Source of the DNA: Anaerolineales bacterium
Lineage (GTDB): Bacteria > Chloroflexota > Anaerolineae > Anaerolineales > E44-bin32
Direction: 5' to 3'
Assembly: GCA_036397095.1 (NCBI GenBank)
Contig: DASWJQ010000039.1
Coordinates: forward strand, 1,422-65,421
DNA: 64,000 bases
Text below: a report on this DNA, generated by a model with database tools, continued
DNA letters: not shown here

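Follow-up and report, generated by a model that had tools for sequence, protein, structure and literature searches.

The cluster begins with a promoter and an inverted repeat, and the initial annotation was right to place a consensus promoter with an operator at its head. Both lie in the 213 nt that separate the first plus-strand gene from a divergently oriented glycosyltransferase gene on the minus strand (39211-40278):

40375-40403, plus strand: promoter TTGACA-17 nt-TATAGT, 11/12 consensus positions
40410-40443, plus strand: 34-bp inverted repeat, GTTGACATGT...ACATGTCAAC, seven bases past the promoter

The repeat contains two exact copies of ATGTAACAT, which has no other exact copy in the 64-kb window. 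After this putative operator, the plus strand carries 22 complete ORFs and one that is cut by the window end. The same-strand run described initially is thus real, and its number of genes rises from 22 to 23. With gene starts taken from the calls on near-identical public contigs, the junctions range from -17 to +40 nt, except those between the first CUT2 permease and the solute-binding protein (SBP, 43131-44264; 129 nt), between the SBP and the ATPase (94 nt), and between MDR2 and ALDH (55 nt). The VWA and MDR2 genes overlap by 1 nt. A scan of 38000-64000 with Rfam found no riboswitch and no other RNA family, a scan for consensus terminators gave matches no more numerous than in shuffled sequence, and the 129-nt gap 5' of the SBP gene has no significant structure.

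Pfam and NCBIfam profile searches of the ORFs reproduced all the family calls that had been made from the sequence at first reading. The front genes encode a GntR+FCD regulator and an SDR, then the importer, which consists of two BPD_transp_2 permeases, a double ABC ATPase, and the SBP, of the Peripla_BP_4 family. They are followed by an AP_endonuc_2 TIM barrel (Hyi/OtnI-like, hereafter HyiTIM), a KduI/IolB cupin (IolB-like), a DHDPS-family lyase (DapA-like), two Zn-MDR dehydrogenases (MDR1 and MDR2), a UlaG-like MBL hydrolase, and a HIBADH. Four of the rear genes encode Mo hydroxylase subunits (FAD, 2Fe-2S, MoCoBD_1, and MoCoBD_2). The others code for an AAA_5 ATPase, a VWA protein of the CobT type, one ALDH, D2HDH1 and D2HDH2 (both D-2-hydroxyacid dehydrogenases), and a second, divergent TIM barrel (TIM2). 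Where they are readable, the catalytic motifs are intact: the lactonase has its HxHxDH, the lyase its Schiff-base Lys, and the Mo subunit its GAKGIGE. Because the G+C content of the cluster is that of its flanks, we rejected the compositional meaning of the term "island": this is a native operon cluster. The genes upstream of gntR are unrelated housekeeping ones (glycosyltransferase, DAO-type oxidase, SHMT-GcvT fusion, peptidases, ECF sigma factor, and a transposase-like gene), and a search of the window 5' of gntR for a missing dehydratase or kinase found neither.

Sequence beyond 64000, which is needed to see the end of the cluster, was found by looking up the TIM2 protein. This led to public metagenome contigs that show 6 differences in the 11,346 bases shared with the window. 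On these near-identical contigs the cluster continues on the same strand throughout, and the strand flips after genes for TauE and an M48 peptidase:

beyond 64000, same strand: remainder of D2HDH2 (full length 326 aa)
off-window, after D2HDH2: 105-nt spacer with a 14-bp GC hairpin then UUUU (z = -3.5), terminator-like
off-window, 105 nt after D2HDH2, same strand: DUF4147+MOFRL protein, 440 aa, with two archaeal glycerate 2-kinase models as its sole NCBIfam matches
off-window, same strand: MoeA-like protein, 343 aa, with a weak MoCF_biosynth/MoeA match
off-window, same strand: cyclophilin-like protein, 129 aa (PF04126)
off-window, same strand, after the cyclophilin-like gene: TauE and M48 peptidase

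The MOFRL protein reaches 234.9 bits with NF041176, a match at the family level (cut-off 550), and 184.5 bits with the second archaeal glycerate 2-kinase model. The lack of a kinase noted at first therefore holds for the visible part and not for the cluster as a whole: it was an edge artefact, since the glycerate 2-kinase gene (GlyK) lies just past the window end. This single kinase is predicted to act on glycerate, as a non-phosphorylative route requires. The reported lack of a dehydratase, on the other hand, extends to the off-window genes, as no enolase-type, IlvD/Edd, or other dehydratase domain occurs in any of the 28 cluster genes or in the rest of the window.

To compare the cluster across genomes we used the UlaG-like protein. 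At E <= 1e-20 it has 266 relatives, and among the named ones those closest to it come from Anaerolineales MAGs. One genome per GTDB species was scanned with an alignment of these relatives, which resulted in 80 loci. All cluster proteins were mapped onto them by tblastn, and neighbours were looked for within flanks of <=10 kb per locus. The relatives are all from MAGs, some of them probably mis-binned. We distinguish close loci, with a UlaG-like protein at least 70% identical (n=29), from distant ones, where it is 41-55% identical (n=54).

Cluster components in the close loci (lower bounds, because several loci are on short contigs)
Mo hydroxylase FAD subunit: 25/29
Mo hydroxylase FeS subunit: 24/29
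Mo hydroxylase L1 / L2 subunits: 23/29 / 21/29
IolB-like: 21/29
HIBADH: 20/29
HyiTIM: 19/29
AAA_5 / VWA: 19/29 / 18/29
IlvD/Edd: 1/29
AFOR (tungsten-type aldehyde:ferredoxin oxidoreductase): 1/29

The co-occurrence suggested as a check is seen in the close loci for the IolB-like, UlaG-like, and split Mo genes, and the DapA-like gene joins them in one form of the cluster only. This long form comprises the window and 14 DapA-carrying loci, in the order GntR-SDR-transporter-HyiTIM-IolB-DapA-MDR1-UlaG-HIBADH-Mo(4 genes)-AAA_5-VWA-(MDR2)-ALDH-D2HDH... The short form (L010, L022, L023, L025, L026, L030, L031, and L040) lacks the SDR, DapA+MDR1, and the ALDH-D2HDH block. It has the MoeA-like and cyclophilin-like genes directly 3' of VWA, whereas about 7 kb of add-on genes intervene in the window's genome. 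Some short-form loci have another binding protein (27% identity) together with psicose-epimerase-like and IolE-like TIM barrels and a Gfo/Idh/MocA dehydrogenase. The most informative locus is L010, of the short form. Its transporter is orthologous to that of the window (SBP 52% identical), and its enzymes are limited to HyiTIM, the IolB-like protein, the UlaG-like protein, HIBADH, and the Mo hydroxylase, for which the accessory genes are also present. Given these two architectures and the minimal set of L010, the 24 kb of the window, first described as a single island, consist of a conserved core with lineage-specific modules inserted into it and placed on either side. The cluster is conserved in some 20 or more species-level genomes. 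Among plasmid records, a protein search with the UlaG-like sequence found only true UlaG (~35% identity) and remote MBL proteins (~23-25%, some of them haloarchaeal), and thus no related cluster in a cultured organism.

The regulation also links the window to L010, where a ACATGTAACAT motif adjoins the TTGACA promoter 5' of the GntR gene. The regulator has the two domains of a GntR/FCD unit (PF00392 and PF07729), with a palindromic GT-N-AC predicted operator just downstream of its own -10 element and kept in L010. An operator common to both loci suggests a metabolite from their shared core as the effector of the regulator.

A modular cluster could also be two or more separate pathways placed head to tail, i.e., the core and a glyoxylate/hydroxypyruvate/aldehyde module made of MDR2-ALDH-D2HDH-TIM2-D2HDH-GlyK, with DapA+MDR1 as a possible third insertion. 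We regard this as unlikely. It fits the short-type loci, in which the core stands without the add-on blocks and the MoeA-like and cyclophilin-like genes are directly behind VWA instead of ~7 kb away, as well as the terminator-like hairpin 3' of D2HDH2. It also fits the distribution of TIM2, whose family is far larger than that of the UlaG-like protein (3984 homologues vs 266), whose relatives elsewhere adjoin a transketolase-like gene and XdhC, and which in locus L098 has no adjacent Mo genes. Yet the window has a single promoter-like site with an operator, and its genes are tight or overlapping, down to the 1-nt overlap of VWA and MDR2. ALDH-D2HDH1 follows VWA in 10 independent long-type loci, the block sits with Mo genes in L097, and the add-ons make chemical sense as steps before and after the core.

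The Mo hydroxylase is encoded by four separate adjoining ORFs (FAD, 2x[2Fe-2S], MoCoBD_1, and MoCoBD_2), with gaps of 6, 17, and 0 nt. By far the best solved structure for both Mo halves is the nicotinate dehydrogenase of Eubacterium barkeri, matched over nearly the whole length (NdhL 229.5 bits, NdhM 240.3 bits). The runner-up, 4-hydroxybenzoyl-CoA reductase, scores 175 bits with the NdhL-like half and 156 bits with the NdhM-like half. Since both halves match NdhL and NdhM at full length, the four-subunit split is common to both enzymes, and we assign the layout, from these matches, to the NdhFSLM type. The likeness to E. barkeri NdhF/S/L/M (PDB 3HRD) extends to the place at which the Mo subunit is split and to the catalytic Glu motif. 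The context differs: the cluster contains no genes of nicotinate fermentation, and it has AAA_5, VWA, and MoeA-like genes. The glyceraldehyde-dehydrogenase alpha, beta, and gamma models gave 210/170, 181, and 154 bits, all far under their cut-offs.

The genes for the CobT-type VWA protein and for the AAA_5 ATPase, which is of the CbbQ/NorQ/CobS class, overlap by 17 nt and are always 3' of the Mo genes. In the system that matures the Mo-Cu CO dehydrogenase, a MoxR-type AAA+ ATPase, CoxD, acts with a VWA protein, CoxE (PMC3471820, PMC4240915), and there too the two genes are directly behind those of the Mo hydroxylase. Unlike in that system, the best domains here are AAA_5/CbbQ_C and CobT_C instead of AAA_3 MoxR (CoxD) and VWA_CoxE, which places the pair outside the CoxD/CoxE type, and the cluster adds the weak MoeA-like and the cyclophilin-like proteins. 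From the analogy and the position behind the Mo genes, we revise the catabolic role first given to the AAA/VWA pair, and we infer that AAA_5, VWA, MoeA-like, and cyclophilin-like proteins are maturation factors of the Mo hydroxylase, analogues of CoxD/CoxE and not orthologues.

Information on the substrate of the Mo enzyme comes from the 54 distant loci, whose hosts include Anaerolineae, NC10, Bacillota, Desulfobacterota, and others. The commonest neighbour of their UlaG-like genes is an IlvD/Edd-family dehydratase (23/54 loci), often immediately 5', followed by GntR regulators, CUT2 or TRAP transporters, HIBADH, LarA-like racemases, and HpcH or DapA aldolases. These neighbourhoods are the signature of a route from lactone to aldonate to 2-keto-3-deoxy acid, which argues that the non-PTS branch of UlaG consists of sugar-acid lactonases. 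Sixteen of the 54 carry either a split Mo hydroxylase (5) or a tungsten-type AFOR (11). The locus L014 has UlaG, Mo(4 genes), IlvD/Edd, HIBADH, DUF6282, and LarA. In L072, L076, and L079 we find IlvD/Edd, UlaG, AFOR, LarA, DUF6282, and HIBADH, with LarA and DUF6282 73-74% identical to those of L014. A CUT2 transporter occurs together with an AFOR and a UlaG-like gene in two further loci, L011 and L044. Hence, the Mo hydroxylase and AFOR replace each other in similar clusters. AFOR enzymes oxidise aldehydes, and because they are swapped with the Mo enzyme we read the latter as a probable oxidant of aldehydes or lactols and not of an N-heterocycle. This swap is the best evidence available here that its target would be an aldehyde or lactol carbon. 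The archaeal non-phosphorylative Entner–Doudoroff (npED) branch shows the same Mo-versus-W alternation (Sulfolobus versus Thermoproteus). HyiTIM and IolB occur only in loci without IlvD/Edd; they may replace the IlvD/Edd step, or the distribution may be a lineage effect.

The same observations bear on the degradation of a heterocycle, in which the NDH-type enzyme would hydroxylate a carboxylate of the pyridine, pyrone, or furan class at the position adjoining its heteroatom, the MBL protein would open a lactam or lactone, and HIBADH would reduce an aldehyde, as in nicotinate fermentation. NdhL and NdhM are the best structural relatives, with the same four-subunit split (240 bits end to end for the second Mo half, against 156 for the next structure), the nicotinate pathway also uses a ring hydrolase and a HIBADH-family dehydrogenase, and an FCD regulator is compatible with a carboxylate inducer. 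However, the transporter is of the sugar-type CUT2 class, sugar-acid isomerase families (Hyi/OtnI and IolB) are invariant partners, and the cluster has no ring reductase, amidohydrolase, or other downstream nicotinate gene. With aldehyde-acting AFOR as a substitute for the Mo enzyme in related clusters, and sugar-acid dehydratases adjoining UlaG-like genes elsewhere, we find this reading most improbable.

How does the cluster relate to the pathways already described? As first proposed, its enzyme mix fits no textbook pathway: the npED, Ula, Otn, Iol, Kdu, and Gar/Gud routes each fail. It is a member of no tested pathway, and by structure it belongs only to the NdhFSLM-type layout, the GntR/FCD-plus-palindrome unit, and the MOFRL kinase family. 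A search of the full-text literature found no characterised orthologous cluster; the coverage of that literature is incomplete, so this is absence of evidence only. The functionally closest systems are the archaeal npED branch and the Mo-dependent oxidative deoxyribose pathway of Pseudomonas simiae, and the cluster is a member of neither. With the former (Sulfolobus, Thermoproteus, and Picrophilus) it shares a lactonase step and a MOFRL glycerate 2-kinase as the only kinase, here matched at the family level (DUF4147 and MOFRL domains). Three more of its enzymes may be counterparts: an MDR would be the sugar dehydrogenase, the DapA-family protein the class I aldolase, and the Mo hydroxylase (W-AFOR in anaerobic relatives) the oxidant of the aldehyde. 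It differs in that neither cluster nor window has the gluconate (aldonate) dehydratase, its lactonase belongs to the UlaG/MBL family, its Mo enzyme is a split NdhFSLM with AAA_5/VWA genes of its own, and Hyi/OtnI-like, IolB-like, HIBADH, and D2HDH enzymes are added, in a bacterial host (Chloroflexota) with ABC uptake under GntR control. In P. simiae, a Mo dehydrogenase of the xanthine oxidase family oxidises deoxyribose to lactone/aldonate, a lactonase follows, and the route ends in glycerate kinase (PMC6365646). The similarity would lie in the Mo dehydrogenase acting on a sugar, the lactonase step after it, and the end at glycerate and its kinase. [quoted passage not shown]

The resemblance to the other pathways is confined to parts. 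The Ltn/Otn routes have the same pair of HIBADH-family dehydrogenase and Hyi/OtnI-family isomerase, which turns an aldonate into a 3-oxo acid, but the DUF1537 kinase OtnK and the class II aldolase-type decarboxylase OtnC are absent from both cluster and window. The equivalog models of LtnD and OtnI are not reached (ThreonDh 150.9 vs 350; OxoTetrIsom 206 vs 325), and HIBADH and HyiTIM score slightly higher on the tartronate-semialdehyde-reductase and Hyi models. With E. coli Ula the cluster shares the Mn/Zn lactonase fold of the UlaG family, with an intact metal motif and ~35% identity, at a score below that of the UlaG equivalog (NF008688, 212.8 vs 306). It lacks the PTS, the UlaD decarboxylase, and the UlaE/UlaF epimerases: no UlaABC PTS, OMPDC-like, or class II aldolase domain occurs in the cluster. 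Since uptake is by an ABC importer, the substrate would be unphosphorylated. For the Kdu pathway, the cupin matches the family (PF04962) but no KduI model at E <= 1e-10, the SDR reaches 219 vs 338.85 with kduD, and KdgK (PfkB kinase) and Eda are absent. The Gar/Gud route fails for want of an aldarate dehydratase and an HpcH domain (GarL), with the tartronate-semialdehyde-reductase model at 211.9 vs 340.75 for HIBADH and a kinase of the MOFRL and not of the GarK family. Similarly, gcl-hyi-glxR-glxK and garL-garR-garK have in common with the cluster a Hyi-like isomerase, a tartronate-semialdehyde-reductase-like HIBADH, hydroxypyruvate-reductase-like D2HDHs, and a glycerate kinase, unlike which the cluster has no glyoxylate carboligase, HpcH-type GarL, or aldarate dehydratase, and its kinase is a MOFRL 2-kinase instead of one of the GlxK/GarK class.

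For the inositol pathway, the IolB-like protein narrowly misses the equivalog cut-off (TIGR04378, 190.8 vs 205). In a modified cyclitol route, dehydrogenases would oxidise the ring, TIM barrels would dehydrate or isomerise it, the MBL hydrolase would stand in for IolD in opening the ring, the IolB-like protein would isomerise a deoxy-uronate, and the Mo enzyme would oxidise an aldehyde in place of the IolC/IolJ/IolA steps. Some features agree with it: both MDRs match the IolM model (247 and 201 bits), the CUT2 binding proteins include inositol binders, and in the short-type loci, and only in these, there are a Gfo/Idh/MocA dehydrogenase, which scores 113 bits as IolG and 175 bits as levoglucosan-DH, and three or four weakly IolE-like or epimerase-like TIM barrels. 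Against this, equivalogs of IolG, IolE, IolD, IolC, IolJ, and IolA are all absent from the window, the L010 cluster has no ring dehydrogenase, and the pairing of UlaG-like genes with IlvD/Edd elsewhere points to lactone or aldonate chemistry. Moreover, we know of no precedent for the hydrolysis of a ring C-C bond by a UlaG-type MBL enzyme. We consider a cyclitol route very unlikely.

The add-on enzymes offer hints of what enters and leaves the core. The DapA-like lyase passes TIGR00674 (223 vs 206) and reaches only 130 vs 390 on the archaeal KDG-aldolase model. DHDPS has the catalytic triad Thr44/Tyr107/Tyr133 plus Lys161 (E. coli numbering). Aligned with three solved DHDPS, the lyase has SQ and FF at the T(S/T) and YY motif columns, and the equivalents of Lys, Tyr133, and Arg138 are present. 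The replaced catalytic Thr and Tyr positions rule out a housekeeping dapA (dihydrodipicolinate synthase). The Arg that binds the distal carboxylate in DHDPS is kept, a hint that the acceptor aldehyde may bear a carboxylate. A DapA-family lyase requires a 2-keto-3-deoxy acid, yet neither the cluster nor the window has a sugar-acid dehydratase. MDR1 matches PF16912 Glu_dehyd_C (38.7 vs 34.9), but its best model is Tdh. We did not adopt a true L-threonine dehydrogenase, since one of two Tdh models is passed, the Kbl partner is missing, and MDR1 is always paired with the DapA-like gene beside the lactonase. The SDR fits gluconate 5-dehydrogenase best (267.8 vs 279), both MDRs also match L-idonate 5-DH, and the D2HDHs match GhrB. 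The SBP has only distant relatives in the PDB (88 bits), two of the best being polyol binders of Mycobacterium smegmatis.

These best matches could be assembled into a keto-aldonate or ascorbate-type route. The UlaG-like enzyme would open a reductone lactone (ascorbate or erythorbate-like) to a 3-keto-aldonate, the Hyi/OtnI-like one would convert it to the 2-keto-aldonate, D2HDH would form idonate or gluconate, MDR/SDR the 5-keto-aldonate, the IolB-like protein a uronate, and the Mo enzyme an aldarate, to be split to pyruvate and tartronate semialdehyde, the latter then yielding glycerate. The scheme gives a role to nearly every enzyme of the window. Its first steps fit the 3-keto acid that UlaG is known to produce and the interconversion of 2-oxo and 3-oxo acids by Hyi/OtnI enzymes; the matches of the SDR, MDRs, D2HDHs, and HIBADH (tartronate-semialdehyde reductase) fit the later ones, and so does the retained carboxylate-binding Arg of the lyase. 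The transketolase-like gene next to TIM2 and ALDH in relatives is reminiscent of tartrate synthesis in plants, for which a cleavage of 5-ketogluconate has been proposed. Nevertheless, an aldarate or aldonate dehydratase would still be needed and none is present, every score is under its equivalog cut-off, and the minimal L010 cluster has no D2HDH, MDR, or SDR steps. The scheme is long, we found no precedent for it in the literature, and we judge it quite unlikely.

The reading that we prefer is a non-phosphorylative oxidative route for a sugar or sugar acid, with a Mo aldehyde/lactol oxidoreductase and an exit at glycerate, and we give it an even chance of being correct. The central idea of the initial annotation thus stands, namely that the route is oxidative, uncharted, and for the most part non-phosphorylative. 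What is read directly from the genomes is the set of genes, how far it is conserved, and the sequence of the operator; the order of steps and the enzyme roles are inferred, all at the level of families. The CUT2 system would import a small sugar, polyol, or lactone. The UlaG-like enzyme would hydrolyse a lactone, HIBADH and the Hyi/OtnI-like and IolB-like isomerases would shuffle the carbonyl, and the Mo enzyme would oxidise an aldehyde or lactol. To these, this lineage would add the SDR, MDR1, and MDR2 as front-end dehydrogenases, a class I lyase releasing pyruvate, and the ALDH. The most likely exit leads from tartronate semialdehyde, hydroxypyruvate, or glyceraldehyde to D-glycerate and 2-phosphoglycerate, because five genes converge on this node, namely those for the Hyi-like isomerase, for the HIBADH that resembles tartronate-semialdehyde reductase, for the two D2HDHs that resemble glyoxylate/hydroxypyruvate reductase, and for the glycerate 2-kinase.

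A more specific proposal, which we hold to be rather unlikely, is a dehydratase-free, almost kinase-free chain-shortening scheme that uses the Mo enzyme twice and would be a hitherto undescribed way to oxidise small sugars. In it, the Mo enzyme would convert a lactol or aldose to the lactone, in place of an NAD-dependent aldose dehydrogenase, and the UlaG-like enzyme the lactone to the aldonate. The LtnD-like HIBADH would oxidise the aldonate to the 2-oxo acid, and the OtnI-like isomerase would move the carbonyl to C3. The resulting 3-oxo acid would lose CO2 spontaneously, as 3-oxo sugar acids do, with dihydroxyacetone cited as the product from L-threonate (review, PMC12994016). The IolB-like protein would then turn the ketose into an aldehyde, from which a second oxidation by the Mo enzyme would yield an acid; for a C4 substrate this is glycerate. 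Maturation of the Mo enzyme would fall to a new AAA_5/VWA/MoeA-like/cyclophilin-like system. In this scheme, all five core families use reaction types already known for their family.

Anaerolineales are a widespread lineage of heterotrophs, abundant in sediments, sludge, and soils and for the most part uncultured; what is said of their carbon sources comes almost entirely from annotation. Automatic annotation misleads here, since parts of the cluster are labelled ascorbate-6-phosphate lactonase, DapA, threonine dehydrogenase, and xanthine dehydrogenase. If the cluster were solved, the UlaG lactonases of the non-PTS branch would gain a function and an NdhFSLM-type Mo hydroxylase a role in sugar metabolism, and a new maturation system for such enzymes may come to light. 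It would also become clear whether the archaeal non-phosphorylative route, with Mo and W aldehyde oxidoreductases that can replace each other, has a bacterial counterpart, and there would be a growth substrate to try in cultivation. Its importance would rise if the role of the Mo enzyme in sugar oxidation or the dehydratase-free chemistry were confirmed.

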